DNA of 64,000 nucleotides from Cenarchaeum sp. (lineage in GTDB: Archaea > Thermoproteota > Nitrososphaeria > Nitrososphaerales > Nitrosopumilaceae): positions 1,504,001-1,568,000 of the forward strand of contig OZ242221.1 in assembly GCA_965206845.1 (NCBI GenBank), in the 5' to 3' direction. Below are positions 1,534 through 51,980 of the stretch, one piece after another. The notes beneath the pieces are model-generated. The model was not told where the DNA came from and did no database searches. It saw only the letters and a program-made list of their open reading frames with translations. Every line of letters starts with the position of its first letter. Within the stretch, counting starts at the first letter, position 1. Both the position numbers and the translations under genes were made by a program.

Positions 1534-1613
1534 GGCTGTGTCCTACGGGCATATGTGAACTGGAATTGGCTCTGTCGATTTGGCGCGTTTGGCTATGTCT
1601 GTAGGACGCAGCT
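1534..1613. mobile_element. 80-bp MITE (family A; IS5-type GGCTGTGTCCTA ends)
   Basis: TIRs GGCTGTGTCCTAC / GTAGGACGCAGCT; 9-bp target duplication GCCAACGGA (1525-1533, 1614-1622). Confidence 0.9.
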
Positions 1614-10059: not shown

Positions 10060-11022
10060 ATGCTATCGTATACCAAGCTGTCAGGAAACGCCAGGCGTTT
10101 CAAGACCCTCATGGGCATGTCCCTCCAAGAATTTGATTTGTTGTTCGCAAAGGTGGAGAAGGCGCATCCTGAGGCGGAGAGGGAGAGGCTCTCCAAGAGG
10201 CCCCGTAGGCGCGCAATCGGGGCCGGGCGCAGGTTCGCGCTCGACCTGCGCAACCGCGTGCTGCTCCTCCTGTTCTACTACAGGACGTATGCCACCCAAG
10301 ACGTGGCGGCCGAGGTCTTCGGGGTGGGCCAGGCCACGGTATCGCGCTCCATCGACCAGATCGCGCCGGTCGTCAGGCAATGCATCCCGATACCAGCCAA
10401 GATCCACGACAGGGCAAAGAGGGCCTCGACCCTTGAGGAGCTTGAGGAGATCCTTCCAGGGCTCCGGTGCCTCATTGACGCCTCGGAGCAGCAGGTGCAG
10501 AGGCCCAAGCGGAAAGACATGGAAAAGACCCACTATTCGGGCAAGGCCGGGAGGCACACGGCCAAGGTACAGTACACCGTGAACACGAACGGCCTGATCA
10601 TCCACAACACGAGGCACTCCCCAGGGCGCGTCCACGACGTCAGGGTGTACAGGATGAAGCACCCGACGTTTCCCTCCGGCCTGCCGTCCCGGGACGGGTC
10701 TGACGGCAAGAAGGGGAGGACAAAGGTGCGGGTCTATACGGACAGGGGCTACCCGGGGGCGCAGAAGATGTACGAAGAGGTGGAAGTGATGGAGCCGATC
10801 AGGCGGAAGCCAGGAAAAAAGCTCTCGGCGCTCGAAAAAGAGTTCAACAGGCTGCACTCAAAGATTCGCGTCTACGTGGAACATGCCATCCGGAGAGTCA
10901 AGACTTGGCGGATAATGGGCGGGGTGTACCGGAACCCGCTGAAGAAGTACGACCGGATCAACGACGTCGTGTGCGGATTGGTAAATCAAAGACTGTTGTG
11001 GCTGGCAGAACAGGCAGCCTGA
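10060..11022 (+). CDS. IS5-family DDE transposase (HTH_Tnp_4 + DDE_Tnp_4 type)
   Basis: IDASE, HYSGK, HD, YTDRGYPG, RVYVEHAIRRVK motifs; uninterrupted ORF. Confidence 0.92.
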   Translation: MLSYTKLSGNARRFKTLMGMSLQEFDLLFAKVEKAHPEAERERLSKRPRRRAIGAGRRFALDLRNRVLLLLFYYRTYATQDVAAEVFGVGQATVSRSIDQIAPVVRQCIPIPAKIHDRAKRASTLEELEEILPGLRCLIDASEQQVQRPKRKDMEKTHYSGKAGRHTAKVQYTVNTNGLIIHNTRHSPGRVHDVRVYRMKHPTFPSGLPSRDGSDGKKGRTKVRVYTDRGYPGAQKMYEEVEVMEPIRRKPGKKLSALEKEFNRLHSKIRVYVEHAIRRVKTWRIMGGVYRNPLKKYDRINDVVCGLVNQRLLWLAEQAA

Positions 11023-11094
11023 CGGAAACGGGCCTGAAAAGTAGGGTGGGCAGGCTTGAAAAATAATAACGGATCACTTCTCTGACGACAGTCC

Positions 11095-25264: not shown

Positions 25265-26497
25265 GGCTGTGTCCTAGAGATATAACCCCACAATCATCCG
25301 CCGTCGTCGCGTCGGTACAGGTATTCTTCGAATTCTTGGGATTGTGGCATTTTTCACATACCGCCGGCTTCAAATGTTGTCCGAAACTGTAAAATCCCAT
25401 CCGATCCAAGGGATGGTGCGCAGGCTCCCCCACGGACGGCGCGGAGGTCACCGCGCCAGTCAGGCAGCCATTGCAGTGAGCGACTCGTGCGTGAGCCTGC
25501 CGCTTTTTACGTGCGATCGCGCGACCACCTCGATGTTGTAGCAGATGACCCGGATTGCTATCTCCCGGCTCTGCCGGGCGCGCCTGCGGCTCCTGAGGTG
25601 GTTCCCATACATTCTCTTGATTGCCCCAAAGACGGCCTCGATGATGCTGCGCTGGTGGTACTCGTCCATGAACCGGGCCAGCTCGTCCCTGTGCGTCCTG
25701 GTCATATCACCCCAGGCCTGGCTGCCCCAGTTCTTGCAGACGGTGTTGGATTTGGGCCGGATGCGCGGTGTCATGCCCTTGGCAGCTATCGTGTCGCAAA
25801 TCTTCCTTGCCAGGTAGGCCGAATCCAGGCAGAAGAAACCAGTGCCCTCTTCGATCCTCCCCAGCATCGGCCACAATCCTGTGATGTCGGAGGCGTACCC
25901 GTCGGTGACTAGGTAGTCTAGGACGGTCCTGGTGGAGACATCGACGATGCTGTGCAGCTTGACCCAGCCGCGCTTGAGCCTGACCTGGTCGTGGCGGATG
26001 CTGAACCACCGGACGAACCTGTTGCTGGAGTAGCCGGTGCTGCCCCCGGCCAACGAGCCGGTCACCATGACGTCGCCGATGATCCTCGTGCGGACCTCCC
26101 GCAGGTACGGCTCGGGGATCATGCCGTAGGCGCGCCATATGGTGCTCTTTGAGGGTATCTTGAGCAGCCCTATCTTCATGGCGAGGCCCCGGTTCATCCT
26201 GAGGTGGCCCACCATCTTTCGGTAGGTGCGCGCCTCTGCTTCCATGAGAATGCAGACGACGGCCATGGCCTTTGGCGGGTAGGCGGTCATGCCGCCCAGT
26301 CCGGGCCTGGCCCGGTATGGGTCGCCCAGATCCTCAACTATCCCCAGTATCGTGCTCAGTATGAGGCCCGGCAGATGCTGCTGGACCAGCTCGTATGGTC
26401 GCTGATCGCGTTTTCCTTTTTTCATTAGGTCGGGCCGCGATCATCGGATCATTATGCCTTGCGATTTTGGGGGAGTATATGTCCGTGGGACACAGCC
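25265..26497 (-). mobile_element. IS5-family insertion sequence (family A ends)
   Basis: TIRs GGCTGTGTCC / GGACACAGCC; perfect 9-bp duplication GCTTGCCAG. Confidence 0.92.
25460..26425 (-). CDS. IS5-family transposase, first catalytic Asp replaced by Gly
   Basis: LAGGSTG here versus VAGDSTG in the paralog at 50948; WVKLH, CLDSAY and YHQRSIIEAVF retained. Confidence 0.88.
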   Translation of the reverse strand: MKKGKRDQRPYELVQQHLPGLILSTILGIVEDLGDPYRARPGLGGMTAYPPKAMAVVCILMEAEARTYRKMVGHLRMNRGLAMKIGLLKIPSKSTIWRAYGMIPEPYLREVRTRIIGDVMVTGSLAGGSTGYSSNRFVRWFSIRHDQVRLKRGWVKLHSIVDVSTRTVLDYLVTDGYASDITGLWPMLGRIEEGTGFFCLDSAYLARKICDTIAAKGMTPRIRPKSNTVCKNWGSQAWGDMTRTHRDELARFMDEYHQRSIIEAVFGAIKRMYGNHLRSRRRARQSREIAIRVICYNIEVVARSHVKSGRLTHESLTAMAA

Positions 26498-31496: not shown

Positions 31497-31624
31497 AGTT
31501 TGTTTCCCAATTTCGATAAACGCCTCTGAGTTGCCACAAAGAACACGATCCTCGTGTGACTTGGCGCTGTTTACGGACTAAATTAATCGTAAAAGTGCGA
31601 AATGTCTGAATTGGGCAATAAAGT
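31497..31624. mobile_element. MITE family D, second (diverged) copy
   Basis: Aligns along its full length with 15956-16084. Confidence 0.85.
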
Positions 31625-31673
31625 TTATTTTACCTATAGAGTTATTAAAGGATGCATAATTTGCTTCGACAAC

Positions 31674-34600
31674 TTGGATAAGAGTTTGTATGCCTTGCTT
31701 ATGCTTTCAGCAGTTTGTGCAGGTGCGTGTTACGACAATGGGACAGAAGGTGGAGCGTACGCAGAGGTTGATGCCGCTCCCATGGTGGCCAACACGGCTT
31801 CGTACTACGTGCAGCACGCTCTGGATGCGGACGCGGCGGCGGACATGCCGGTTCTTGGTGAAAACGGCGCGACGGCGCCCTCCGAGGGCATGGAGGCGCG
31901 ATCCGGCGCGCAGGACGAGGCCGCCTTTGTGACCACTTGGCAGACTGCCCGGGCAGACGAGGGAATAACGATCCCGGTGGGCGGGGCGACAGGAACATAC
32001 ACGGTCGACTGGGGAGACGGCAGCACCACCACGCATACGGGGGATGCCACGCACGTGTACGGTGTCGCCGGAACCTACACTGTTCAGATATCCGGCGACT
32101 TTACCAGAATCTATCTGGGCGGCGGCGAGGCCAACGCGCAAAAGCTGCAGTCGATAGAGCAATGGGGGGACGTCGGATGGGATTCAATGATGTCGGCATT
32201 TTATGGAGCGACAAACATGGTATACAACGCAACGGATGCCCCGGACTTATCCGGCGTGACCAGCATGGCAGACATGTTCCACAACGCCGCCCTCTTTGAC
32301 GGCGACATCTCCGGCTGGGACGTCTCGTCGGCGACTGACATGGGCAGCATGTTCTTCAACGCCCGCTCCTTCAACCAGCCCCTCAACGGATGGAACGTCT
32401 CATCCGTGGAAGACATGTCTTTTATGTTCAGCGGAGCCACCTACTTTGACCAGCCCCTCAACGGATGGAACGTCTCATCCGTGGAAGACATGTCTTTTAT
32501 GTTCAGCGGAGCCACCTACTTTGACCAGCCCCTCAACGGATGGAACGTCTCATCCGTGGAAGACATGTCTTTTATGTTCAGCAGTACCTCTTTCTTTAAC
32601 CAGCCTCTTGACTCCTGGGACGTCTCGTCGGTGGCCGACATGAACAGAATGTTCGCCGGCGCCACCGCCTTCAACGGCGACATCTCAAACTGGAATGTTT
32701 CGTCTGTCACCGACATGAGCGGGATGCTGTCTCGGGCTTATGCCTTTGATCAGAATTTAGGTGACTGGTACATCGTCTTGGATGATGCGGCTATCGATTA
32801 CGGTGACGCGCCAGGGGTCGTCGGAAGTATATCTGCACAAAACCAGGCTCTCAACTATCAGAGTCCTGCATATCGTCTGGGATCGGGCGGCGACTCTGAC
32901 TTTTTTGAGATGGATGGCGCCCGTCTCAAAATGAAGGGCACTCCTGCGAAAGGCTCGTATTTTGTAACTCTGACTGCCACCGGCGACTTTGGCAGATCCA
33001 ATTCAAAGGTGGTGGAAGTTACAGTTACCGGAGTCCCTGCAGGTGTTGATGCCGTTCCCATAGTAGTCAGATCCACGACTGCAGACTACTTTGTGCTATA
33101 TGTGCGGCACGCTCTGGATCCGGACACGACGGTGGAGATGCCTGTCTTGGCGGTTCTTGGTGAAAACGGCACGACGGCACTTGCCGAGAGCGTGGAGGCG
33201 CTTTCCAAGGAGCGCTACCGGGTGGAGAAATACCTAGTCGCCGACCCTGCCGACGTTGACGGCGACGGCATCGACGATGTCACAGAACTCTCAGATCCGG
33301 TGGGCATGAACCCTGTGAACCCGGTCACCGCGTTAGATCCCGGCGACGGTGCCGTGTCTATTCCTGACTGGGACACATTCAAGGCGTTATCCTTTGACAT
33401 TCTTGGGATGAATTTTACGACCGTCAAGTTCGTCATACTCCACGCGGATACCGCCCTCCCGCATGTCTACTTTATGAACGGCACAAAGTATCCGGCGCAT
33501 TCTATCTTTCTGGATGTCCTAGGCGTCACGTCGTACTACGATGATTACATAACCGGTTCGATTACCTATGACCCGGAAATCGTTGCCCCCGATGGCAGCC
33601 TAGGAGTCTACCATTACGAGTTATCCTGGTGGACCACTGATACTCCGTTCAACCTGGTGGATCGCACTTATACCCTGCTTGCCGCAAACATGCCCCTGCT
33701 TGAGGACAACTTGGCCTTGCATGTGAGCAACCGTGAACTTCCGCTTTTCCAGTCCGACTTGCCATTATATGCAGCATCCCGCGTCAACCTCGTATTCGAC
33801 GACGACATACTCCCCGAAACCGACTTCCTTGCGTTGAATCCTGGAGAAGGGTACGGCATGCTGCAGACCATGGAACCAGACGAGCGCCCCAACCCCCGTG
33901 ACGTGGTAATCTACGAGGCGCTGCCCAACGAGCTGCCCCGCGTCGCCGGCATCATCAGCACCGTGCCTCAAACGCCGCTCTCGCATGTCAATCTGCGCGC
34001 CGTTCAAGACAGCGTGCCCAACGCCTTCATCCGCGACGTCCTAGAAGACGCCGGCATCGACGATCTTATCGGCAGCTACGTCTACTACAACGTGACCGAG
34101 GACGGATGGGACCTGCGCGCAGCCACCCGCGCAGAAGTCGATGCCCACTACGGTCATTCTCGGCCTACCGGGGAACAGGTGCCGCAACGGGATCTCTCGG
34201 TAACGTCGATCACCCCCCTCAGTGATGTTGGCTTTGAGGACTGGGAGGCGTTCGGCGTCAAGGCGGCGAATGTGGCCGTGCTGGGAAAGATGGGTTTCCC
34301 TGAAGGGACCGTCCCGGACGGGTTCGCGGTGCCGTTTTATTTCTACGACGAGTTCATGAAGGCCAACGGGCTCTACGCCCGCATCGATGCCATGCTGGCC
34401 GACCCTGCCTTACAGACTGACTTCGATGTCCAGGAGGACGAGCTCAAGAAGCTGCGCAAGGCGATAAAGAAGGCAGAGACACCCGCGTGGATAATCACGG
34501 AGCTAGAGGAGATGCACGGGGAGTTTTCCAATGGGATCTCCCTGCGCTACAGGTCCAGCACCAACAACGAGGATCTCCCCGGTTTCAACGGCGCGGGACT

Positions 34601-37600
34601 GTACGACTCCAAGACCCAGGATCCAGAGGAGACCGAGGAGGACGGCATCGACAAGTCCCTCAAGTCGGTGTACGCCAGTCTGTGGAACTTTCGCGCCTTC
34701 ACCGAACGCGACTTCCATCGTATCAATCACACGGAGGCCGCGATGGGAATCCTGGTGCACCCCAACTATTCCGACGAACTAGCTAACGGCGTGGCCGTCA
34801 GCTTTGATCCAGTCCGTGACAGCGACGGGAATTACTACGTCAATACCCAGATCGGCGAGGATCTGGTCACCAATCCCGAGGTATACTCGATACCGGAGGA
34901 AATACTGTTGGACCGGTACGCCGATCAGTACACCGTCCTTGCCACCTCCAACCAGGTGCCGCCGGGGCAACTTCTCATGAGCGACGACCAGCTGTATCAG
35001 TTACGCCTGCACCTTGCCACGATCCATGAGGAGTTTGCAGATCTGTACGGTGTCGGGCCCGGCGAGCGGTTTGCCATGGAGATCGAGTTTAAGATCACCA
35101 GCGAGGACATTCTTGCGATCAAGCAGGCCCGACCATGGATCTTCAACTCCGAGCGATCCCATGTGATAGACGGTACCCCGCCGGTCTTCAGCTCCGCCAC
35201 GTACGACAAAGGCACAGGCGTCCTTGCGATAACCCTCAGCGAGGACATATCCGGGACGGCAGATCTTGCCAAGTTGCATGTACGTGAATCCGGCCAACCC
35301 TCCAGCGGCACTGCCCTGACAGGTGCCACCCAATCCATCGTAGGCTACACCATCATCATAACACTCACAGACTCCCAGAGGACGGCGGTCAACGACATGA
35401 CGGCGCCCACGCTGGACATAGACGCGGGTGCCGTCTCAGACGGAATCGACCACATACTGGTCACCCGGGATCGGGCAATCACCATTGTCAACAGCGATCC
35501 CGTTGTCGACGCCGGCCCAGACCAGACCGTGGACGAGGGATACTTGGTAACACTCAACGCCACTGTCACCGATGCCGACGGCGACAACATGACCTACTCG
35601 TGGACGCACGACTCGCCTTTGGCCATCCAGCTGGCCAACCCTGCCTCGCCGTCCACCACCTTTGCCGCTCCGGCAGTCGACGCGGACACGGAAATAACAT
35701 TCACGCTGACTGCCGATGACGGAACCGTCACTGCCTCAGACTCGCTTGCAGTTACCGTCACCGACGTGCCAACTGTCAACAGCCCGCCTGTCGCCGATGC
35801 CGGCCCAGACCAGACCGTGGACGAGGGATACTTGGTAACACTCAACGCCACTGTCACCGATGCCGACGGCGACAACATGACCTACTCGTGGACGCACGAC
35901 TCGCCTTTGGCCATCCAGCTGGCCAACCCTGCCTCGCCGTCCACCACCTTTGCCGCTCCGGCAGTCGACGCGGACACGGAAATAACATTCACGCTGACTG
36001 CCGATGACGGAACCGTCACTGCCTCAGACTCGCTTGCAGTTACCGTCACCGACGTGCCAACTGTCAACAGCCCGCCTGTCGCCGATGCCGGCCCGGACAA
36101 GACCGTCCAAGAGGGCCAGGCAGTCACGCTCAACGGAACCGCCACCGATACCGACGGTGACGGTCTGACGTACGCGTGGAGCCACGACTCGTCCACGGAA
36201 ATAACATTCAACGCCTCCTCGCCGGTTGCCACGTTTGCAGCGCCGCCGGTGGATGCCGACACGACAGTCACCTTCACGCTGGCAGTCTCCGACGGCTCGG
36301 CCAATTCCACCGACGCCGTTCTTGTCACCGTGATCGACGTGCCGGACGACTCGGACTTTGTCACGACGTGGGAGACTGCTGCACCGGGTGAGTCCATAAC
36401 GATCCCGGCCCGCGGCACGTACACGATATCATGGGGCGACGGAACGGTGGACGCGGGAGTCACGGGCGACCAGACCCACGCGTACGACGTCCCCGGGAAC
36501 CACACGATCCGCATATCCAAGGGCATCACTGGAATCAACCTGGGCAACCATGCCGACGCGCCCAAGCTGAGATCGATAGACCAGTGGGGCGACGCCAAGT
36601 GGAGTACGATGTATTCCGCATTCAGGGACGCCTCAAGCATGACATTGCGCGCGGCTGACGCGCCGGACCTCTCCCGTGTCAAGTACACCCAGTACATGTT
36701 CTTGAACGCCAGCTCCTTTGACGGCGACCTCTCCGCGTGGGACGTCTCGCATGTCACCAACATGGTGGGAATGTTCTGGGAGGCCAGCTCCTTTGACGGC
36801 GACCTCTCTGCGTGGGACGTCTCGAGCGTGACTGACATGTTTACCATGTTCTACAATGCCCGCTCCTTTGACGGGAACATATCCGCGTGGGACGTCTCGT
36901 CCGTAAGAAACATGGCCAACATGTTCCACGGCGCCTCGTCATTTGACGGCGACCTCTCCGCGTGGGATGTCTCGTCGGTGACTGACACGTATGCCATGTT
37001 TTTGGCCGCGTCCTCCTTTGACGGCGACCTCTCCGGCTGGGACGTCTCGCGCGTGACTGACATGGCCGACATGTTCCGCTCTGCCTCGTCATTTGACGGC
37101 GACGTCTCCGGCTGGGACGTCTCGCGCGCGACCCGCATGAGTACCATGTTCTACCTCGCCGACTCGTTTGACCAGAACCTGGGGGAATGGTACATCGTGC
37201 TCGACGATGCCGCCATTGACCACAGCAGCGTCCCAAGGGAGGTGGGCAGGATCGCCGCACAGAACAGGTTCCTGGATGGCCATAACCCGGCATACGGCAT
37301 AGGCTCCGGGGGCGATTCGGCCCACTTCGAGATCGACGGCAGCATCCTCAAGATGAAGTCGGTGCCTGACGGGCACGCCGGCCCGTACTCGGTCACCGTA
37401 ACTTCCACCGGAGCATACGGCTCGGAAAACTCCCGCACCTTTGACATATCCGTGACGGAAGGGGACGCCAACACGCCACCGGTGGCGTCGTCTGGCCCAC
37501 GCGGCGTGGACGGGTTCACCCTGACCAGCACCCAGCCCGGAACGATCGAGGTAACTTGGGATGCCCCCGGCGAGGCGCCCAGAGACTACCGCGTGGCGTG

Positions 37601-38084
37601 GGCCAAAGTAGGTGAGAACTTTTTGTCGCGTAGTGACCTGACAGGCAACGCTTTTCCCACGTCCCCCAACCACACCATCACGGGTCTCGAGGGCGGAGAG
37701 TACCAGGCGAAGGTGCGCGCCCGGTACAACAGCGGCGGAGCGGGGAACTGGAGCGAGGTGGCCACCGTCACGGTTTTGGCGCCGCCCGACCCGCGCGGGA
37801 TAGGCGAGATCAACCTGACCAGCGCCCAGCCCGGTACGATCCAGGTCTCCTGGGAGGCGCCCGGCGAGGCGCCTAGGGACTACCGCGTAGCGTGGGCCGA
37901 GGTGGGCGAGAGCTTCCTGGGGCGGAGTAACTTGGACGGCAACGCTTTTCCCACCTCACCCAACCACACCATCACGGGTCTCGAGGAGGGCGAGGAGTAC
38001 AAGGTGAAGGTGCGCGCCCGTTACAGTGATAACGGCCCGGGTGACTGGAGCGACGAGGTCACTATCACCGTCGCGAGATCCTAG
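31674..38084 (+). CDS. Giant surface protein: PKD, BspA/DUF285 repeats, cadherin-like, PEP/pyruvate-binding (PPDK-N) domain, 3x PKD-like, DUF285, 2x FN3
   Basis: TTG start giving signal-like MDKSLYALLMLSAVCAGAC; W(D/N)VSSVxDMxxMF 25-aa repeats; GVKAAN...RSST.NED..GFNGAGLYDS...QARP; VDAGPDQTV repeats; FN3 W...Y.V.VRARY. Confidence 0.9.
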   Translation: MDKSLYALLMLSAVCAGACYDNGTEGGAYAEVDAAPMVANTASYYVQHALDADAAADMPVLGENGATAPSEGMEARSGAQDEAAFVTTWQTARADEGITIPVGGATGTYTVDWGDGSTTTHTGDATHVYGVAGTYTVQISGDFTRIYLGGGEANAQKLQSIEQWGDVGWDSMMSAFYGATNMVYNATDAPDLSGVTSMADMFHNAALFDGDISGWDVSSATDMGSMFFNARSFNQPLNGWNVSSVEDMSFMFSGATYFDQPLNGWNVSSVEDMSFMFSGATYFDQPLNGWNVSSVEDMSFMFSSTSFFNQPLDSWDVSSVADMNRMFAGATAFNGDISNWNVSSVTDMSGMLSRAYAFDQNLGDWYIVLDDAAIDYGDAPGVVGSISAQNQALNYQSPAYRLGSGGDSDFFEMDGARLKMKGTPAKGSYFVTLTATGDFGRSNSKVVEVTVTGVPAGVDAVPIVVRSTTADYFVLYVRHALDPDTTVEMPVLAVLGENGTTALAESVEALSKERYRVEKYLVADPADVDGDGIDDVTELSDPVGMNPVNPVTALDPGDGAVSIPDWDTFKALSFDILGMNFTTVKFVILHADTALPHVYFMNGTKYPAHSIFLDVLGVTSYYDDYITGSITYDPEIVAPDGSLGVYHYELSWWTTDTPFNLVDRTYTLLAANMPLLEDNLALHVSNRELPLFQSDLPLYAASRVNLVFDDDILPETDFLALNPGEGYGMLQTMEPDERPNPRDVVIYEALPNELPRVAGIISTVPQTPLSHVNLRAVQDSVPNAFIRDVLEDAGIDDLIGSYVYYNVTEDGWDLRAATRAEVDAHYGHSRPTGEQVPQRDLSVTSITPLSDVGFEDWEAFGVKAANVAVLGKMGFPEGTVPDGFAVPFYFYDEFMKANGLYARIDAMLADPALQTDFDVQEDELKKLRKAIKKAETPAWIITELEEMHGEFSNGISLRYRSSTNNEDLPGFNGAGLYDSKTQDPEETEEDGIDKSLKSVYASLWNFRAFTERDFHRINHTEAAMGILVHPNYSDELANGVAVSFDPVRDSDGNYYVNTQIGEDLVTNPEVYSIPEEILLDRYADQYTVLATSNQVPPGQLLMSDDQLYQLRLHLATIHEEFADLYGVGPGERFAMEIEFKITSEDILAIKQARPWIFNSERSHVIDGTPPVFSSATYDKGTGVLAITLSEDISGTADLAKLHVRESGQPSSGTALTGATQSIVGYTIIITLTDSQRTAVNDMTAPTLDIDAGAVSDGIDHILVTRDRAITIVNSDPVVDAGPDQTVDEGYLVTLNATVTDADGDNMTYSWTHDSPLAIQLANPASPSTTFAAPAVDADTEITFTLTADDGTVTASDSLAVTVTDVPTVNSPPVADAGPDQTVDEGYLVTLNATVTDADGDNMTYSWTHDSPLAIQLANPASPSTTFAAPAVDADTEITFTLTADDGTVTASDSLAVTVTDVPTVNSPPVADAGPDKTVQEGQAVTLNGTATDTDGDGLTYAWSHDSSTEITFNASSPVATFAAPPVDADTTVTFTLAVSDGSANSTDAVLVTVIDVPDDSDFVTTWETAAPGESITIPARGTYTISWGDGTVDAGVTGDQTHAYDVPGNHTIRISKGITGINLGNHADAPKLRSIDQWGDAKWSTMYSAFRDASSMTLRAADAPDLSRVKYTQYMFLNASSFDGDLSAWDVSHVTNMVGMFWEASSFDGDLSAWDVSSVTDMFTMFYNARSFDGNISAWDVSSVRNMANMFHGASSFDGDLSAWDVSSVTDTYAMFLAASSFDGDLSGWDVSRVTDMADMFRSASSFDGDVSGWDVSRATRMSTMFYLADSFDQNLGEWYIVLDDAAIDHSSVPREVGRIAAQNRFLDGHNPAYGIGSGGDSAHFEIDGSILKMKSVPDGHAGPYSVTVTSTGAYGSENSRTFDISVTEGDANTPPVASSGPRGVDGFTLTSTQPGTIEVTWDAPGEAPRDYRVAWAKVGENFLSRSDLTGNAFPTSPNHTITGLEGGEYQAKVRARYNSGGAGNWSEVATVTVLAPPDPRGIGEINLTSAQPGTIQVSWEAPGEAPRDYRVAWAEVGESFLGRSNLDGNAFPTSPNHTITGLEEGEEYKVKVRARYSDNGPGDWSDEVTITVARS

Positions 38085-38327
38085 CTATGCCACGGGGATA
38101 AAGTCCGTGCATGTTTTGCCGAACTGCAGTATATGGAAATTATGTCTGCTAGTCATTGGAGTCCACCTCCGCCCATTTTGGGTTCTTTTCCCTGATCGCT
38201 TCTGTCGCCTTTTTGGCAATTAATTCCCAAGGAACCTTACGGCTGTGTCCTACGGGCATATATGAACTGGAATTGACTCTGTAGATTTGATTCATTTGGA
38301 AAAACATCCTCGTCGTAGTCGTGGCAG

Positions 38328-38441
38328 TGGATCGACCCCTTGATAACCATGTGCTCCGCGCACTTTCATTTGAATGGGGCAATCCGAGCTGCTGTGTTCC
38401 TGTGCTTCGCGCACTGATAGGTGATTGCAGCTTCCGATCCA
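38328..38441 (+). ncRNA. Predicted bridge/seek RNA of the IS110 element
   Basis: Outer stem TGGATCG/CGATCCA; loop 1 closed by CCCCTT/AATGGGG holds ATAACCA and TTCATTTG (target matches); loop 2 closed by AGCTGC/GCAGCT holds TTCC and ATAGGTG (donor matches); both capped by hairpin GTGCTYCGCGCAC. Confidence 0.82.
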
Positions 38442-38474
38442 TCGAAAACAATCCGCAAGGAGATGAGAGAAAGG

Positions 38475-39554
38475 ATGAGGAACATAGGAATAGACATTGG
38501 TAAGGGAAAATGCATAGTATGCGTAGTGGACGGCAAGGGAAACGTGCTGGAGAGGGCATCATACAAGAACACGCTGGAAGACGCAAAAGAGTTTGCACGC
38601 AGGATGAAAAAAGAATACGGCGGGAAAGGACGGTGCAGGGCCGCGTGCGAGTCGACTGGAAACATGTGGCTCAAGACATTTGAGGCCTTCGAGGGGTGCG
38701 AGATACCGGTAAAGCTTGCCAACACGTACAAGATGAAGATAATATCGGACACCGACGTCAAGACGGATCCCATCGACGCGCAAAAGATTGCAAACGCGCT
38801 GCGCGTGGGGATTATCCCAGAATGCTACGTGGCACCATCGGATTTGCGCGATGTCAGGGAACTGCTCAGGTACAGGATAAGCATGGTTCAGGCAAGGACT
38901 GCCCTGATCAACTACACGCACGGCCTGCTTGACAAGTACGACGTGATGCCAGATGTCTCAAGGATGCACAGCAAAAAGGCCATCAGGCTGCTTTCGCAGA
39001 TACGCCTTAAGAAACCAAATGACAACATGATCCTGCAAAACTGCGTCAAAAGGATTGCACATGCCACAGAGGAGATATCTGGCATCGAGGCAGAGATAGA
39101 CAGGCAGGCCGCAGTCAACGAGGATGCGAAACTGCTGATGAGCATGACTGGCATAGAGGCGTTTGCCGCGATGCTGCTGGTATCTGCGATTGACGGCATC
39201 ACCAGGTTCAAGACCGCAGACAGACTGGTCTCATGGACCGTGATGTGTCCGCGAGTCTACCAGTCCGGCAACGTGACGCACCACGGCCGCATGAAAAAGG
39301 CGTCAAACCGAAGGGTAAACTGGATAATGATCCAAGCAGCCAACGTGGCAGTGCGCCATGATGACAGACTAAAGTGGTTCTATCAAAATGCCAAGACAAG
39401 GCACGGTGGCAACCACCCGATTGCCATAACACACGTGGCAAACAAGATGGTGAGGATCATCTGGAAGATGCTGACTGCCAAGGAACCGTACGAGTCCCAT
39501 GACGCAAGCAGATATGCCAAAAAGATGAAAAGAATGAAGAAGATTCTGCAGTAG
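38475..39554 (+). CDS. IS110-family DEDD recombinase/transposase
   Basis: IGIDIGK, ACESTG, KTDPIDA (DEDD RuvC-like), C-terminal MTGIE and RVYQSG (candidate catalytic Ser); intact ORF. Confidence 0.95.
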   Translation: MRNIGIDIGKGKCIVCVVDGKGNVLERASYKNTLEDAKEFARRMKKEYGGKGRCRAACESTGNMWLKTFEAFEGCEIPVKLANTYKMKIISDTDVKTDPIDAQKIANALRVGIIPECYVAPSDLRDVRELLRYRISMVQARTALINYTHGLLDKYDVMPDVSRMHSKKAIRLLSQIRLKKPNDNMILQNCVKRIAHATEEISGIEAEIDRQAAVNEDAKLLMSMTGIEAFAAMLLVSAIDGITRFKTADRLVSWTVMCPRVYQSGNVTHHGRMKKASNRRVNWIMIQAANVAVRHDDRLKWFYQNAKTRHGGNHPIAITHVANKMVRIIWKMLTAKEPYESHDASRYAKKMKRMKKILQ

Positions 39555-39830
39555 GTGCACGGGGCGGACTGGCCAGCTAGGCTGGCCCGCACCAGTACAT
39601 TTTCTGCAATCCAATTCCTAGCGATAGCTTTAAAGTTGTACGCGCGTAACCTAGGCGTGGATCAGAAGTCAGACGGAATCAACGCTTGACTATGACCGGA
39701 TGTTTTAACATAGGTGGTTATGTCTGTAGGACACAGCCGAACCTTACAGTTTGCATATATTGATGAAGGCAGCCCAAGGCTGAACGGTGCAAGCCAGACC
39801 GGGGAAAGGTCCAAAATAAACCGCACATAC

Positions 39831-40044
39831 TATGTGGATTCCGACAGACCCGTTAAACAGTGTACAAAATGCCGCATTCACGCCGGAATGCCCGCACCAT
39901 GGCAGCGTCACGGACGCTGGACGTCTCTGCCCGACCCGACACACATGGCATCTGGCATGCATCTCAGGTTCCAGGCACGGATCTGGTCTCACATGACGGC
40001 CCGCAGAGCACTGAACCCGTGTGATAATGGCATTACAAGCGATC
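39831..40044. repeat. ~215-bp non-coding repeat, copy 2
   Basis: Reverse complement of 26599-26812. Confidence 0.9.
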
Positions 40045-40125
40045 GGCTGTGTCCTAAAGGAATATGCCCGTTTGGATGGTGGCTTCTGGATGGCCATTTT
40101 GGATATTTGCTTGTAGGGCACAGCC
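40045..40125. mobile_element. 81-bp MITE with family A ends and a different interior
   Basis: GGCTGTGTCCTA / TAGGGCACAGCC; no target duplication visible. Confidence 0.8.
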
Positions 40126-40261: not shown

Positions 40262-43200
40262 ATGATGAAGGCGCTTATAGTGGTGCTCGCGCTAGTGCTA
40301 CCTAGTTTGCTGGGCTACGCCCTTGCGACACCCTCCATCGCCATGTCTCCTGTTGCGTTTGTGGCCGACGGGGTGGACGGGTTTGAGGAGCTTGGCGGGC
40401 CAAAAGGCATCACCACAGTCACGATCGGCTCCTCGACGTATGCCCTTGTTGCCGCATACGACGACGACGGCGTCCAGATAGTCGACATCACGGATCCCTT
40501 CAACCCGAGCCCCGTTGCGGCCGTAACCGACGGGGTGGACGGGTTTGAGGAGCTTCGCGGTGCGCGCGGCATCACCACCGCTACGGTCGGCTCCTCGACG
40601 TACGCACTTGTCACGGCAGCTGCCGGCGTCCAGATAATCGACATAACGACTCCCTCCAGCCCGGCCCCGACCGCGCACATAAGCGCTGCCTCTGCTGTCG
40701 CCCTCCGTGGCTCGTACGGCATCGCTACGTTTACAGTCGGATCCTCTGCGTATGCCATTGTCGCATCAAGCTCAGGCGGCATCCAGATAATCGACATCAC
40801 GGATCCCTCCAGCCCGGCCCCCGTCGCATCCATATTGGGCGGAAGCGAGCTCGGCGGGCTCGGCGGAGCGCGCGGCATCACCACGACCACGATCGGCTCC
40901 TCGACATACGCCCTTGTTGCCGTATCCAGCGAAGACGCCGTCCAGATAATCGACATTACAGATCCCTTCAACCCGAGCCCCATTGCAGCCGTACGCAGTA
41001 GTCAAGATAACAGGCTTGACGGCGCAACTGGCATCACCACCGCCACCATTGGCTCCTCTACATACGCCCTTGTTACGGCGCAGTACGATAACGCCGTCCA
41101 GATAATCAACATCACGGATCCCTCCAGCCCGGACTCCGTTGCATTCGCGCAGGACGGAAGCGGTGGGTTTGACAAACTTGAATATCCTGAGAGCATCGCC
41201 GTCGTCACGTTCGACTCCTCGACGTACGCCATCGTCGCGGCATTCCTGGACGGCATCCAGATAATAAACATCACGGATCCCTCCAACCCCAGCCCTGCAG
41301 CCTCTGTGGACAGCAATGACGCCAGATTTGGCGGCTTTCCGCTTCCCGAAGACATCGCCGTCGTCACGATAGACTCCAGGACGTACGCCCTTGCCGCATC
41401 CTATTTTGGTAACGGTGTCCAGATAATCGATGTAGCCCTCACCTCCGGCCCGCTGCTAACGTCGGCCGTCTTGGACGAGGGAACAGGCATCTTGGAGATC
41501 GAATTTGCGAGTGCAGTCGATGTCACTCCCGCAGGCATGGCTGATCTGTCCGGATTGACCATCCGTGGTTCCGGACAGTCCGTTTCGCTGGCCGGGGCGA
41601 CGCTGGGAACCGAGGCGGACTCCACCGTAATCTCCATCGAGCTGACCGAGGGCCAGGGCCGCTCAGTCGCCGCCATGGCGTCCCCGCGGTTGGATGTGGC
41701 AGACTCTGCCGTGACAGGAACGGACGGCAACCCGATCGAACAATCGTTAGGCAATACCGTCACCGTAAACGATGACGCGGCGCCTGGGGTCGTATCTGCG
41801 GCCTTTGACGGGGAGGGCAGCATCCTGACTATCACGTTTTCAGACAGGATCGACGTCACGCCTGCCCGCATGGTTTACCTGGGAGGGATGACCGTCAGCG
41901 GCTCCGGGCAGTCCGTTTCGCTGGCAGGGGCGACTTTGGGAACGGAGGCCGACTCTGCTGTAATCTCCATCGTGCTGACCGAGAGCCAAGGCAGCTCAGT
42001 CGTCGCCATGGTGTCCCCGCTGTTGGCCATAGGCCACTATGACGTAGTAGACACGGATGGCAACCCGATCGCGTCTTCGTCCGGCAATGCCATCTCCATA
42101 AACAGTGTAAACGAGATTCCGACCGTCACATCGATCGAGCGGAGCGACCCGACAACGGAGACCGCCTCCGCGCAGACCCTTGTCTTTGCTGTGACCTTCA
42201 GCGAAAACGTGGCCGGCGTGGACCAGGCAGACTTTGCGCTGTCGCCTGGTAGCACCGGGGCGGGAAGCATAGCAAACCTGACCGGCTCCGGCAGCCGGTA
42301 CCTCGTGACCGTCTCGGTCACGCGGGACGGGACATACAATCTCGACATCGCACAGAACAACAACATCACCGATGCCACGGGCAATCCTCTGGCAGGCGAC
42401 GACCCGTTGCCGGATCAGTCGTTCACTGTGGTGACTGTAAACACGGCACGTGAAGTAGGCGGGATCACCCTGACCAGCACCCAGCCCGGGACGATCCAGA
42501 TAACCTGGGAGGCTCCCAGCGAGGCGCCCAAGGACTACCGCGTGGTGTGGGCCAAGGCGGGCGAGAACTTTCTGCCGCGGAGTGACCTAGCAGGCAACGC
42601 TTTTCCGACCTCTCCTAACCACACCATCACGGATCTAGAGGAGGGTGAAGAGTACAAGGTAAAGGTGCGCGCCCGATACTACAGCGGCGGGCCCGGGGAC
42701 TGGAGCGGCGTGGTCACCCCCATGCTTGCCGTAATCCCGGACCAGACCGTTGACGCCGGCCCCGACCAGACCGTCATGGAGGGCCAGACGGTTGCACTGA
42801 ACGGCACTGCCGCCGACATCAACGGTGATCCGCTGACCTACTCGTGGATCCACGACTCGGCCCTGGCCATACAGTTTGCTAACGCCACCTCTCCGTCCAC
42901 CACCTTTACCGCGCCTGCAGTCTACGCGGACACTGCAGTGACCTTCACGCTGACTGTCAATGACGGCAACAGCACCGCCTCCGACCAGATGACAGTTACC
43001 ATCGCCCACAACGACCCGCCGACCTTCGTCACGTCTGAATTTGACACTGACGCGGGGGTGCTGACGATCACCTTTTCAGAAACGATAGACGTGGCAAACG
43101 TAGTCCCTGCCAAGATGCACGTAAGGGAGTCGGGGAATTACACGCACGGCACAACCCTGACTGCCGGCGAGCTTGTCACTGTCGCCGACGGCGCCACGAT

Positions 43201-46200
43201 CTCGTTTACCCTCACTGAACCGCACCGCACGGCAGTCGCGAGACTGGCCGCGCCGGAACTGACGATCGAGCCGGGGGCGGTGCGGGACGCGTCTGGCAAC
43301 CTCATAGTCGGCACCTTTGATGCCTCCACCCGAACGTTCGTTGACGCCACCAGCATCCGACCACAGGAAAACGCTCCAACAGACATCGCGTTCTCAAACG
43401 ACGGCACCAAGATGTTTGTGATGGGCACTGTCGGAGACGACGTAAACGAATACACGCTGTCCACCCCGTTTGATGCCTCCACCCGAACGTTCGTTGACGC
43501 CACCCCCATATCATCAGAAGAAACTCTTCCAACAGACATGGTGTTCTCAAACGACGGCACCAAGATGTTCGTGATAGGCACTGACGGAGCCGACGTAAAC
43601 GAGTACACGCTGTCCACCCCGTTCGATGCCTCCACCCTAACGTTCGTTGACGCCACCTCCATATCGTCACAGGACGGCCAACCACGAGGCATGGCGTTCT
43701 CAAACGACGGCACCAAGATGTTCGTGCTAGGCAATGCCGGAGACGACGTAAACGAGTACACGCTGTCCACCCCGTTCGATGCCTCCACCCTAACGTTCGT
43801 TGACGCCACCTCCATATCGTCACAGGTAGTCAGACCACAAGGCATCGCGTTCTCAAACGACGGCACCAAGATGTTCGTGCTAGGCAATGCCGGAGACGAC
43901 GTAAACGAATACGCGCTGTCCACCCCGTTCGATGCCTCCACCCTAACGTTCGTTGACGCCACCTCCATATCATCAGAAGAAACTTTTCCAACAGGCATGG
44001 TGTTCTTAAACGACGGCACCAAGATGTTCATAATAGGCATTATCGGAGACGACGTAAACGAATACGATCTGAGCTCCGTCTATCCAATTACGGTGACAAG
44101 GACGCCACCGATCTTTGTCGCGTCCGAACTTGACATTGACGCGGGGGTGCTGACGATTACCTTTTCAGAAACGATAGACGCGGCAAGTATAGTTCCGGCC
44201 AAGATCCACGTAAGGGAGTCGGGGAATTACACGCACGGCACAACCCTGACTGCCGGCGAGCTTGTCACTGTCGCCGACGGCGCCACGATCTCGTTTACCC
44301 TCGCTGAACCGCACCGCGCCGCAGTCGCGAGACTGGCCACGCCGGAACTGACGATCGAGCCGGGGGCGGTACGGGACGCGTCTGGCAACCTCATCGTCGG
44401 CACCTTTGATGTCTCCACCCAAACGTTCGTTGACGCCACCGACATCTCATCACAGGAAACCCAACCACGAGACATCGCGTTCTCAAACGACGGCACCAAG
44501 ATGTTCATAGTAGGCGATGTCAGAGACAACGTAAACGAATACACGCTGTCCACCCCGTTCGATGCCTCTACCAGAACGTTCGTTGACGCCACCAGCATCC
44601 GAGCACAGGACGGCGATCCACGAGGCATGGCGTTCTCAAACGACGGCACCAAGATGTTCGTGATAGGCTATAACGGAGACAACGTAAACGAGTACGCGCT
44701 GTCCGCCCCGTTCGATGCATCCACCCTGACGTTCGTTGACGCCACCAGCATCCGAGCACAGGAAGACGATGCACGAAGTGTAGCGTTCTCAAACGACGGC
44801 ACCAAGATGTTCGTGATGGGCGTTGTCGGAGACGACGTAAACGAATACACGCTGTCCACCCCGTTTGATGCCTCCACCCGAACGTTCGTTGACGCCACCT
44901 CCATATCATCAGAGGAAACTTTTCCAACAGGCATGGTGTTCTCAAACGACGGCACCAAGATGTTCGTGATAGGCTGGGAAGAGTACGTAAACGAGTACGC
45001 GCTGTCCACCCCGTTCGATGCCTCCACCCGAACGTACGTTGACGACACCTCCATATCATCAGAGGAAGTCGATTCACAAGGCATCGCGTTCTCAAACGAC
45101 GGCGCCAAGATGTTCATAATAGGCATTATCGGAGACGACGTAAACGAATACGATCTGAGCTCCGTCTATCCCGTTACGGTGACAAGGGCGCCCCCGATGA
45201 CTGCCGGGGCGCTTGTCACCCTGTGGAACGTGGCAGCCAGTCCGCACACGATCTCCATGCCCCTGAATGTGCATTCCGGGGGAACGCTTTCCATAGACTG
45301 GGGCGACAACAGCACTGACACTGTCGCCGCCAACGGCACGCAGTCGCACACGTACGCGGTCCCGGGCGAGTACCGGGTGTCCATGACCGGAGACCTTGCC
45401 AGGATAAACCTGGCCGCTACCGGTTCCACGGCATCCAAGCTGGCATCCATCGACCAGTGGGGCGACATAGAATGGTCCTCCATGAAAGGCGCGTTCTGGG
45501 GAGCCTCCGGCATGGAATACAAGGCAGCCGACGCGCCGGACCTGTCGCGCGTGGCCTCGATGCAGAACATGTTCCGTGCCGCTGCCTCCTTTGATGGCGG
45601 CCTGTCCTCTTGGAACGTCTCGGCCGTGGCCAACATGGACGGCGCGTTCCGCGGCGCCTCGGCGTTCAAAGGAGACATCTCTACTTGGGACATGTCCGGC
45701 GTGACTGACATGAGGACGATGTTCCAGGACACCGCCGCCTTCAACGGCGACATCTCCGGCTGGAACGTCTCGTCGGTGACCAACATGAATTCCATGTTCT
45801 CAGGCGCCTCCTCCTTCGACCAACCCCTCGACTCCTGGAACGTCTCGTCGGTGACCAACATGAATTCCATGTTCTCAGGCGCCTCCTCCTTCAACCAACC
45901 CCTCGACTCCTGGAACGTCTCGTCGGTGGAAGACACGTCCTACATGTTCTCAGGCGCCACCGCCTTCAACCAGCCCCTTGACTTCTGGGACGTCTCGTCT
46001 GTGACCGACATGAACAGCATGTTTGGCTTGGCCACCTCCTTTGACGGCGACATATCTGACTGGGTCGTCTCGTCTGTGACCGACATGAACAGCATGTTCT
46101 CTGGTGCCGACTCCTTTGACCAAAACTTGGGCAAATGGTACATCGTGCTTAATGACATGACCATCGACTATAATGATGCACCAGGAATTGTCGGAAGCAT

Positions 46201-50766: not shown

Positions 50767-51980
50767 GGCTGTGTCCTATGAATAAAAGCCACCACTCTCT
50801 GCATGGTGACTGAGACACCGGACGTCTCATAATTTGCAGACACTGCGGCAGCTCCGCTTCGCTGATCATCCGAAAACCATAAAATTGCCCCGTTCCACGG
50901 CATAATGCGCAGGCTCCGCTGGGCAGGCGCGGTGGAGGCCGCGCCGGTCATGCAGTCATGGTAGCGATCATCTTCGGTGTGAGCCTGCCGTCCCTTGCCT
51001 TCGATCTGGCCACGAGTTCTATGTTGTAACAGATTATCCGAATTGCAATCTCCCTGCACTGGTTCTCCGGCTTGTGGCAACGCGTGTGGTTTCCGTACAT
51101 CTTCTTGATGGCGCCAAACACCGCCTCTATGATGCTGAGCTGGTGGTATTCTGACTTGAACGTGTCCGGATCTTGCACGGACAGGTCTACTATCTCGCGC
51201 CACGCTTGGCTTCCAAAGGCGTTGTGAACCGTGTTGGATTTCGGCTTGATGCGCGGCACCATGCCCATCTCCGATATCGCGCTGCACACATCCCTTGCAA
51301 GGTAGGCCGAATCCAGGCAGAAGTGGCCCGCACCCCCCTCAAATCTGGCCAGCATGCTTCGCAGTCCAATGATGTCGGCTACGTTGCTGGCCGTCACGAG
51401 GTAGTCGAGTACCACCCCCGTGCGTATGTCGTTGATGCTGTGGAGCTTGACCCAGCCCCTCTTGGTTTTCACGCTGCCGGTCCGCACGTCATACCACCTG
51501 GCGAAGCCGCTGTCAGAGTATCCCGTGCTGTCCCCTGCCACCGATCCCGCAGGTATCTCGCAGATGACCCTGCGGTGCACCTCCGCCAGGTACCGATCCG
51601 GAATGAGGTCGTAGGCGCGGGCAATGGTGCTCTTGGAGGGAATCTTGTGCGGTCCGATCTTCGCGACGGTGTTGCGGTTGTTTCGGAGATGGCCGACCAT
51701 CTTGCGATAGGTCTTGCGCTCGGCCTCCATGACTATGCACACTGCGGCCATGGCCCTGGACGGATATGCAGTCATGCCGCCCAGGCTGAACCTGGCAGTA
51801 TACGGGTCGCCCAGGTCATTGACTATTTTCAGAATCGTGTTGAGGATTAGACCGGGCAGGTATTGCTGAATCAGGTCGTACTGTCGTTGATCGCGCTTCC
51901 TTTCAGGCACTTGGTGGGCCCGCGATCCTCAGATCAATATGCCTTGCTATTGGACAGGTATATCTTAGTAGGACACAGCT
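50767..51980 (-). mobile_element. IS5-family insertion sequence (family A ends)
   Basis: TIRs GGCTGTGTCCTA / TAGGACACAGCT; flanks not duplicated. Confidence 0.9.
50948..51910 (-). CDS. IS5-family transposase (DDE triad present)
   Basis: VAGDSTG, WVKLH, CLDSAY, YHQLSIIEAVF. Confidence 0.92.
   Translation of the reverse strand: MPERKRDQRQYDLIQQYLPGLILNTILKIVNDLGDPYTARFSLGGMTAYPSRAMAAVCIVMEAERKTYRKMVGHLRNNRNTVAKIGPHKIPSKSTIARAYDLIPDRYLAEVHRRVICEIPAGSVAGDSTGYSDSGFARWYDVRTGSVKTKRGWVKLHSINDIRTGVVLDYLVTASNVADIIGLRSMLARFEGGAGHFCLDSAYLARDVCSAISEMGMVPRIKPKSNTVHNAFGSQAWREIVDLSVQDPDTFKSEYHQLSIIEAVFGAIKKMYGNHTRCHKPENQCREIAIRIICYNIELVARSKARDGRLTPKMIATMTA

Follow-up and report, generated by a model that had tools for sequence, protein, structure and literature searches.

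A Nitrosopumilaceae IS110/IS1111-family element with a putative two-loop guide RNA matched to its landing site in a miniature inverted-repeat transposable element

RNA-guided recombinases of the IS110/IS1111 insertion sequence (IS) family are in development as programmable genome-writing tools, and their natural diversity guides this engineering. As described by Durrant et al. (PMC11208160), the RNA of IS110-group members lies in a long left end and their subterminal repeats measure 2-3 bp; in IS1111-group members it lies in a long right end and the repeats measure 7-17 bp. The order of the guide segments is reported to differ as well: in the seekRNA, the top-strand match lies 5' of the bottom-strand match in IS1111 and 3' of it in ISEc21 (Siddiquee et al. 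2024, PMC11187229). A two-loop architecture has been reported from experiments on IS621, ISEc21 and ISEc11. Several of the natural targets described are themselves mobile or repeated: ISEc21 inserts into IS3 transposase genes, IS4321 and IS5075 into Tn21 inverted repeats, ISKpn4 into attC, and IS621 and ISPa11 into REP sequences. Archaeal IS110 recombinases are known as a group (662 in one survey), and large-scale mining of bridge RNA families beside IS110 genes is under way. Here we describe positions 38299-39716 of a 64,000-nt stretch of the genome of Cenarchaeum sp., an ammonia-oxidising archaeon (assembly GCA_965206845.1, contig OZ242221.1, positions 1,504,001 to 1,568,000; the whole stretch is called the window). 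We read this segment, with a probability of roughly 0.9, as a Nitrosopumilaceae RNA-guided element of the IS110/IS1111 family carrying its own two-loop guide matched to a site in a miniature inverted-repeat transposable element (MITE). The reading draws on the observed family of the protein, the structure of the RNA with its covariation, the covariation of guides with flanking DNA, and the occupation of the same site in three MITE copies.

An earlier reading of the window from its letters, the sequence-only reading, had proposed that an IS110 element interrupts an 80-bp MITE and uses a bridge RNA programmed against it. The anatomy of the insertion agrees with that proposal in every respect when the letters are checked. 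Excision in silico of 38299-39716 fuses 38241-38298 with 39717-39738 and restores an 80-bp MITE that aligns with the empty copy at 1534-1613; the restored MITE has 13-bp terminal inverted repeats (GGCTGTGTCCTAC) and is bounded by the direct repeats GAACCTTAC at 38232-38240 and 39739-39747, which constitute a 9-bp target-site duplication (TSD). The parts of the insertion are the following.

38232 to 38240, plus strand: left copy of the MITE's 9-bp TSD (GAACCTTAC), with the identical 9-mer at 39739-39747
38241 to 38298, plus strand: left 58 bp of the MITE, terminating in the left target TTCATT and the core TG (38291-38298), recognised by alignment to the empty MITE at 1534-1613 and by the inverted repeat GGCTGTGTCCTAC
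38299 to 39716, plus strand: IS110-family element of 1418 bp whose left end is 8 nt shorter than in relatives, delimited by its ends, three further genome copies and the family termini
39717 to 39738, plus strand: right 22 bp of the MITE, starting with the right target GTTAT (letters and MITE alignment)
39739 to 39747, plus strand: right copy of the 9-bp TSD (letters and MITE alignment)

In order, the letters read GAACCTTAC, GGCTGTGTCCTAC...GATTCATTTG, then the element from its start GAAAAACATCC to its end AACATAGGTG, then GTTATGTCTGTAGGACACAGCC and GAACCTTAC. A TG core stands at both junctions of the element, which we term c1-type (38297-38298 and 39715-39716), and a single TG stands in the restored MITE, with no duplication of the target. 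The insertion site is the 13-nt sequence TTCATT-TG-GTTAT, and the target guides of the window copy fit it at 13/13 positions.

The interrupted sequence has the hallmarks of a MITE: it is short and without a reading frame, it has inverted repeats and a TSD, it is multicopy, and a partner with the same ends is present. Related elements in the window are listed below.

1534 to 1613, plus strand: unoccupied MITE of the same family with the mismatched site GCGCGTTTGGCTAT and the TSD GCCAACGGA, aligning with the restored MITE
40045 to 40125, plus strand: second unoccupied MITE with the same inverted repeats, another interior and a mismatched site (sequence comparison)
25265 to 26497, minus strand: IS5-like element of 1.2 kb with DDE_Tnp_1 and DUF772, the inverted repeats of the MITE and a 9-bp TSD (GCTTGCCAG); a second copy lies at 50767-51980

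Since the IS5-like element carries the MITE's inverted repeats and a 9-bp TSD, it is likely the autonomous partner of the MITE; the transposase genes of the IS5-like elements sharing these ends are intact. The host genome is a single contig of 1.65 Mb with 57% G+C, and it contains five unoccupied and three occupied copies of the MITE family, seven of the eight with clean 9-bp TSDs. The claim that unoccupied MITEs are mismatched at the target site holds for both copies in the window and has to be qualified genome-wide: four of the unoccupied family members read GCGCGTTTGGCTAT there, and one reads CTCATTTGGTTAT (host contig G000:C1:262123-262202), a 12/13 match. Allowing at most one mismatch, TTCATTTGGTTAT is intact at only two places in the genome, this CTCATTTGGTTAT MITE and one place outside any MITE. 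The site is found in one subfamily of the IS5-derived 80-bp MITE, which would make the MITE its landing site. The proposal of a MITE as landing site is supported; in the published descriptions, the targeting of mobile or repeated elements is already documented for the family (ISEc21, IS4321/IS5075, IS621). The stretch is present in contigs of runs from ten studies, and in three other public runs there are contigs in which 38296 is joined to 39715 (1418 nt skipped, with a 3-nt ambiguity). These joints, whose short side measures only 25 nt and lies in a repeat, the MITE, indicate that MITEs with an intact cognate site exist elsewhere.

The gene within the element supports assignment of its product to the IS110-family DEDD recombinases, as the sequence-only reading had it.

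38475 to 39554, plus strand: recombinase gene, 359 aa, with a DEDD RuvC-like domain, a Tnp domain with an SG serine motif, and Val at residue 256, where Gly is otherwise invariant (reading frame, Pfam, alignment)

The protein matches PF01548 (N-terminal RuvC-like DEDD domain; 83.7 bits against a cut-off of 29, residues 4-155), PF02371 (C-terminal Tnp domain; 75.4 bits against 21.3) and the NCBIfam model NF033542, 'IS110 family RNA-guided transposase' (225 bits against 140). Standard annotation would therefore already name the element as an RNA-guided IS110/IS1111 member. Among solved structures, only bridge recombinases match, weakly (ISCro4 at 25 bits and IS621 at 22 bits), and with the SG serine motif aligned: IGID, CEST and KTDPID of the recombinase align with the ISCro4 chain, and 'YQSGN' aligns with 'YESGS' of ISCro4. 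The protein had also been called compact, a description that does not set it apart, since its 359 aa exceed the 328-aa IS621 chain. Relatives of the recombinase (E up to 1e-30) occur in 53 genomes out of 401 sampled from the same family, and the named ones bear the title 'MAG: Nitrosopumilus sp.', which fits the earlier label 'thaumarchaeal'.

Upstream of the gene, the comparison supports a conserved two-loop RNA encoded in the left end, with the parts given here.

38299 to 38474, plus strand: left non-coding end, 176 nt, in which 38299-38309 (GAAAAACATCC) is the remainder of the left subterminal inverted repeat (end comparison)
38327 to 38442, plus strand: putative structural core of the bridge RNA, about 116 nt, with the outer stem 38327-38334/38435-38442 around the target and donor arms (fold, covariation, de novo prediction)
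38336 to 38379, plus strand: putative target-binding arm with stem 38336-38339/38376-38379, right-target guide AUAACCA at 38343-38349, cap 38351-38363 and left-target guide UUCAUUUG at 38365-38372 (fold; hypervariable strands matching the flanks)
38386 to 38433, plus strand: putative donor-binding arm with stem 38386-38392/38427-38433, 5' strand UGUGUUCCU at 38393-38401 (right-donor guide), cap 38402-38414 and left-donor guide GAUAGGUG at 38416-38423 (alignment; family termini)

The minimum-free-energy fold of 38299-38475 consists of the 8-bp outer stem and two internal loops capped by hairpins; an outer stem enclosing two capped loops had been proposed from the letters and is backed by covariation. 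At the DNA level, ATAACCA (38343-38349), TTCATTTG (38365-38372), TTCC (38397-38400) and ATAGGTG (38417-38423) all stand where they had been placed, and each loop is capped by GTGCTYCGCGCAC (GUGCUYCGCGCAC in RNA). A covariance model, R1, was built from four sequences of the window's genome. It matched 30 of 34 related Nitrosopumilaceae loci, each time directly upstream of the recombinase gene; the misses were L028 (distant, 29% identity), L050 and L055 (cut by contig ends) and L052, for which we have no explanation. In the model-fitted alignment A2, 95.1% of 862 cells were paired and 19 of 27 pairs showed compensatory changes, values that none of 500 shuffles reached; controls with slid partners gave 27-49% paired. 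All eight pairs of the outer stem showed compensatory changes. These 27 pairs were recovered by RNAalifold from an independent MAFFT alignment of 18 sequences, in which 16 showed compensatory changes. With filters off, R1 gave nothing above 9.5 bits on the distant references ISEc21, Haloarcula, IS4321, IS5075, Rhizobium and ISKpn2.

The two capping hairpins (38351-38363 and 38402-38414) are near-identical within an element and change jointly across elements in A2 (GUGC/GCAC, GGGC/GCCC and GCAC/GUGC in both arms), a hint that the protein may contact them symmetrically or that one arm may convert the other.

In the alignment, invariant stems frame target-loop strands that are hypervariable, and the donor loop has a conserved 3' strand (UGAUAGGUG or UGAUAGAUG). 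Element ends were placed via the donor loop alone and the target loop was then compared with the flanks. For the left side, 25 of 32 rows were kept (a donor-guide score of 7 or more, at a distance of 18-36 nt from the RNA); for the right side, an ad hoc filter kept 23 of 32 (the left-donor guide matched at 7/8 or better, and the core preceded by one of six accepted endings). Two loci were dropped, L030 because it coincides with L024 and L051 because a contig end cuts it, and the left flank of the window row was set by hand from the MITE because the left-end terminus is missing there and automatic boundary finding fails. The left flank matched the left-target guide at 4.40 of 6 non-core positions compared with 1.72 when permuted (n=25), and the right flank matched the right-target guide at 3.96 of 6 compared with 1.72 (n=23); none of 10,000 permutations reached the observed value on either side. 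The covariance check suggested in the sequence-only reading has thus been carried out, and the guides do covary with the flanks. Matches of 7-8/8 on the right side were seen in L025, L031, L032, L033, L040, L043, L045 and L058, and clear misses in L003 (the third copy of the host genome, c3), L037, L041 and L057. Two further, more diverged loci of the host genome follow the same rule on the left side: L005 (443366-443501), with a broken or partial gene, has a left flank that matches its guide at 7/8 and that belongs to a short repeat with at least six copies, and L006 (678692-678823), without a recombinase gene, has an R1-type RNA of 138.7 bits and a left flank matching its guide at 7/8. Weak remnants of bridge RNAs without a gene occur at G000:C1:1231241-1231362 and 1026497-1026611 (28 and 23 bits).

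These results bear on whether the left-end structure might be a mere 5' untranslated or protein-binding element of the mRNA, with the matches between loops and flanks arising by coincidence. The energy of the fold, no better than that of shuffles, and the lack of any matching bridge RNA family in a scan of 38000-40000 with Rfam 15 (E up to 1) speak for that account. It would leave unexplained why guides and flanks covary on both sides with 0/10,000 permutations, why the loops are hypervariable between invariant stems, and why the architecture is the one for which experiments have been reported in IS621, ISEc21 and ISEc11; we regard it as extremely improbable.

The host genome contains four copies of the element, listed with host-contig coordinates.

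Window copy, c1: reference copy
1326793 to 1328210, minus strand, c2: full length, 98% identical to c1
91125 to 92536, minus strand, c3: full length, 92% identical to c1, outside any MITE
1266804 to 1267863, c4: 99% identical to c1, without the first 358 nt

Mapping of the copies, another check suggested at the outset, placed c1, c2 and c4 in three separate MITE copies, always at one position within the MITE, and the flanking 9-mers differ among the three. Such a pattern could arise if a MITE already carrying the IS had spread as a composite through the IS5-like transposase of the MITE, in which case the co-occurrence would reflect copying and not RNA-guided targeting. Indeed, c1 and c2 are bounded by MITE repeats and new, clean, direct 9-bp TSDs, c4 is bounded by the repeats although its flanking 9-mers are mutually inverted, and the genome has IS5-like elements that share these inverted repeats and whose transposase genes are intact. 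However, the MITE halves on either side of c1 and c2 show 8 differences in 58 positions (~14%), compared with ~2% between the IS copies, which argues that the insertions are independent and not copies of one composite. Furthermore, the guides fit the site at 13/13, the guide-flank rule also holds in relatives at unrelated sites, and c3, with altered guides, lies outside any MITE. Spread as a composite is therefore highly improbable in our estimate.

In c4 (MITE at G000:C1:1266749-1267907), the deletion removes IS nt 1-358, that is the RNA and the first 58 codons, and fuses TTCATTTGGAAA to CATGTGG at a 6-nt repeat, TGGAAA, resembling a c1-type left junction. Another inverted repeat of the same kind abuts this MITE.

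Identical loops at unrelated sites, which would have spoken against guided insertion, were not found among the genome copies; c3 lies elsewhere and has other guides beside a matching site. Between the strands of the outer stem, c1 and c3 differ at nine positions, five of which fall in the 23 nt of the target-loop strands. The guides of c3 predict the site TCCCTT-TG-GTTTAC, and its left flank is AACCTT-TG, directly ahead of a left end of full length (AACACATGGAAAAAC). This flank is the first 99 bp of a 1.1-kb IS with three other copies, and undisrupted copies of that host IS read AACCTTTGATTTACCA at the place of c3, a 12/17 match to the site predicted from the c3 guides; the place corresponds to the 3' end of the DDE_Tnp_4 transposase gene of the host IS. 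With five changes in its target loop, c3 would thus have been directed to another mobile element. The host-IS type is represented in the window at 10060-11084, with an HTH_Tnp_4 + DDE_Tnp_4 transposase and three genome copies. The locus offers a clear archaeal case, from the Nitrosopumilaceae, of sister copies naturally reprogrammed within one genome, and of mobile elements landing in other mobile elements (a MITE, an IS5-like transposase gene, other short repeats) within a small 1.65-Mb genome.

On the donor side, AACACATG and then an A-rich stretch come after the TG core in the left end of relatives. UGUGUU, in the donor loop's 5' strand, is the reverse complement of AACACA, the left-end terminus of relatives; this right-donor guide fits the left end at 6/6 in c3 and at 5-6/6 in most relatives. 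The left-donor guide GAUAGGUG matches the right-end terminus CATAGGTG (CATAGG-TG) at 7/8. The 8 nt of AACACATG are kept by c3 and by all other elements with a usable boundary and are absent from c1 and c2, and c4 shows the same truncated TG-GAAA junction ahead of its internal deletion. Lacking AACACATG, the window copy has a left end that the right-donor guide UGUGUU no longer fits. The sequence-only reading had assigned loop 2 a donor guide on each side: ATAGGTG holds, while the TTCC/GGAA match, which stands in a different register from the target loop, is probably incidental, the more plausible right-donor guide being UGUGUU with its fit to AACACA.

The window copy is also atypical in its protein. 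In the alignment of 25 recombinases, it alone has Val for a Gly found in 24/24 other relatives, ten residues before the SG serine (Gly256Val), and it has Ala for Glu in the EIGDI motif, where 19 of 24 relatives have Glu; c2 and c3 have the consensus residues at both positions. The earlier description of the window copy as a programmable recombinase is supported for its family and needs qualifying for the copy itself, with its left end short by 8 nt and its Gly256Val change. Both features may impair it, and that the copy is dead or non-autonomous on their account is a serious possibility, to which we give somewhat less than even odds. The substitutions at the invariant Gly and in EIGDI, together with loss of a terminus kept by all other elements with a usable boundary, speak for it. 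Against this, the reading frame is intact, and the truncated end is found in c1 and c2, with the same TG-GAAA junction in c4; being present in three MITE copies, the truncated form has moved at least twice. In addition, c2 combines the consensus residues with an identical RNA and could therefore serve c1 in trans. ISPpu9 is reported to form several circles from different combinations of termini (PMC12288879), and the two left-end forms, with and without AACACATG, possibly parallel these circle variants, a likeness that offers a lead and not a test.

By analogy with IS621, ISEc21 and ISEc11, we infer that the RNA is transcribed and bound by the recombinase and that the element is active through a circular form. 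The element would excise as a circle with its ends abutting at the TG core; the predicted circle junctions are CATAGG-TG-GAAAAAC for c1 and c2 and CATAGG-TG-AACACATGG for c3. In the donor loop, the 3' strand GAUAGGUG corresponds to the right-end terminus CATAGG-TG and the 5' strand UGUGUU complements AACACA, the left-end terminus of relatives. The complex of recombinase and RNA would then recombine the circle junction with TTCATT-TG-GTTAT without duplication.

Several points weigh against the interpretation of the element as RNA-guided and matched to the MITE. On the donor side, the left end of the window copy is GAAAAAC, with which the right-donor guide forms three Watson-Crick (A-U) pairs and one G-U pair out of six. 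On the target side, one unoccupied MITE (12/13) and one non-MITE site (12/13) are still empty, and the right flank of c3, CGCCTAC, fits the right-target guide at 0/6 non-core positions, so that a later rearrangement must be assumed. Within 400 nt the host IS is not seen to continue on that side (flank CGCCTACCGCC..., G000:C1:91000-91124, L003 about 1376-1500), which suggests a deletion or rearrangement in the neighbourhood of the right end. Boundaries in the flank test were inferred from the donor guides with the TG core forced, and the relatives are kin, so that they are less independent than the permutation figures imply; the fit of alignment A2 was to the model itself. Compared with shuffles, the left end has an ordinary folding energy (z = -0.21), which, being no better than theirs, is not used as evidence. 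There is no evidence of transcription, and no run on record as RNA contains the stretch; no circle junction was observed.

Compared with described systems, the clade formed by this element and its relatives has a mixed layout. Among 12 relatives, a set without the window copy, the subterminal inverted repeats of the two ends agree at 12-15 of 16 positions, and in 11 of these 12 the left repeat lies 2 nt further from the core than the right (5 versus 3 nt, counted from the repeat's ATG). In both loops, it is the top strand to which the 5' strand is complementary and the bottom strand to which the 3' strand is. The right end measures 124-189 nt in most relatives and is without an R1 match. Judged from these sequences, the clade joins the RNA location of IS110 with the guide order and repeats of IS1111, since an upstream RNA, top-strand-first guides and long repeats occur together; guide order and long subterminal repeats are thus not tied to RNA location, which bears on how the IS110 and IS1111 layouts evolved.

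The closest parallels are each partial. IS621 of E. coli, as described (PMC11208160; 8WT6 and others), likewise has a DEDD + Tnp protein, an RNA in the left end upstream of the gene, and a target in a repeat (REP) without target duplication, and its target and donor loops each pair with both strands around a dinucleotide core. Its core is CT and not TG, its group has inverted repeats of 2-3 bp compared with the 12-15/16 positions here, a common outer stem closes both arms in the present clade, and protein similarity amounts to 22 bits. The guide order of IS621 is opposite to that of this clade. ISEc21 (PMC11187229) is described as having its RNA upstream and its natural target in other IS, at codons around the second D of IS3-family transposases, which parallels c3 in the DDE_Tnp_4 gene and c1 in the MITE, and natural redirection by few guide changes has been described for it as well (ISMch6); it differs in having the top-strand match 3' of the bottom-strand match, 5' here, and its protein scores only 33 bits. 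With the IS1111 group (ISEc11, ISKpn4, ISPa11, IS4321/IS5075), as reported, the clade shares the guide order and the 7-17-bp repeat range, and IS4321/IS5075 also target the inverted repeats of another transposon. The reported extensions of 7 nt on the left and 3 nt on the right in IS1111 agree with the 5/3 of this clade only on a count that assigns the 2-nt core to the left end, and the RNA of the IS1111 group lies downstream in a long right end, whereas it lies upstream in all 30 loci with a match here. ISPpu9 of Pseudomonas putida (PMC12288879), set beside the clade by its description only, similarly inserts in repeated extragenic elements but is bacterial and has an extra small-RNA gene. 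In pairwise comparisons, the c2 protein scores 62-69 bits with IS4321/IS5075/ISKpn2 (best among the named bacterial references), 33 with ISEc21 and 22-25 with IS621/ISCro4; since IS5075 scores 51 bits with IS621 and ISEc21 matches no solved structure, such scores do not settle the group. What is new is the layout of the archaeal clade and a possible coupling of RNA completion to circularisation, the basic mechanism being already known. Among the papers listed in literature searches, no title or abstract dealt with an archaeal bridge RNA or a MITE as IS110 target, and Fig. 6d, Extended Data Fig. 10 and the supplementary data of Durrant et al., together with the 2026 atlas preprint (10.64898/2026.10.21.760802), may already hold the RNA family or the layout.

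The possible coupling concerns the right end.

39555 to 39716, plus strand: right non-coding end, 162 nt, with the right subterminal inverted repeat at 39698-39711, AGG, and the core TG at 39715-39716 (end comparison)
39629 to 39634, plus strand: TATA-like hexamer TTTAAA, 88 nt from the right end, conserved in relatives; a putative promoter, with its orientation likewise presumed
39657 to 39668, plus strand: right-end leader GTGGATCAGAAG, complementary to the 3' closing strand of the bridge RNA (38431-38442), beginning 26-29 nt past the TATA-like box and covarying

The right-end alignment, in which 5 of 23 elements are without a recognisable right end, contains a conserved block TAGCG-N-TAGCT(A/T)TAAA. 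Of the 15 elements whose right end measures 120 nt or more, 14 have the TATA-like hexamer 86-89 nt from the end, and the leader starts 26-29 nt after the first base of the hexamer. Such a spacing is usual between TATA box and transcription start in archaea. Since the hexamer is almost a palindrome, which way it points is uncertain. Duplexes between leader and 3' strand had a mean energy of -17.5 kcal/mol for cognate pairs compared with -13.5 for non-cognate ones (14 elements; 0/10,000 permutations). In register over the outer stem (13 elements), the leader pairs at 94 of 104 positions and the left-end 5' strand at 99 of 104, and in a 4-nt extension beyond the reach of the left-end strand the leader pairs at a further 43 of 52. 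In L035, the leader tracks the 3' strand exactly where the left-end strand uses wobbles; in L039, it pairs via two G-U pairs. The duplex, in-register and per-element analyses drop L024, a duplicate of L025, and the in-register and per-element pairings also drop L043, which has no TATA-like box and a long right end. In thermodynamic models of junction-crossing transcripts from the predicted start, the 3' strand pairs with the leader in 10/10 elements and the inverted repeats form a hairpin.

We offer tentatively, as a possibility we think rather unlikely, that the bridge RNA gene is completed only across joined ends. The right end would then be a full archaeal promoter whose transcript, from a circle or from tandem copies, crosses the junction of right end and left end, so that the conserved 10-12-nt leader at the predicted start, and not the left-end 5' strand, closes the junction-spanning RNA; the subterminal inverted repeats would form a hairpin displaying the donor core. 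The closing helix would have two forms that exclude each other, each maintained by covariation, and the fold might in this way report the circular or the integrated state. Taken with the upstream RNA and with guide order and inverted repeats of IS1111 type, this would make the clade intermediate between the IS1111 and IS110 layouts, the junction lying in effect inside the RNA gene rather than after or before it. This makes the coupling of RNA production to circularisation a testable idea in archaea, whose promoters differ from bacterial junction promoters.

Some minor observations concern the RNA and its surroundings. Contigs of other runs vary inside the RNA at 38356, 38367 and 38395; the C to A change at 38367 lies in the left-target guide, and the T to C change at 38395 lies in the right-donor guide and gives the state of the named Nitrosopumilus relatives. 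Run X19, whose label as RNA is a guess and which, contigs being unable to show ends, is not used as evidence of expression, has a 154-nt contig at 38393-38546 with a depth of 103, compared with ~2.4 inside the gene. The sole Rfam match in the scanned region, to the C/D-box sRNA sR30 at 39761-39785 just outside the MITE, is probably due to chance (16.8 bits against a gathering threshold of 38, E = 0.29). The MITE and the IS lie in a 2.2-kb gap between two huge repetitive frames, 31602-38084 (2160 aa) and 40262-48994 (2910 aa), which have long near-identical repeat blocks in common; the right-end promoter, if outward-reading, would face the frame at 40262-48994.

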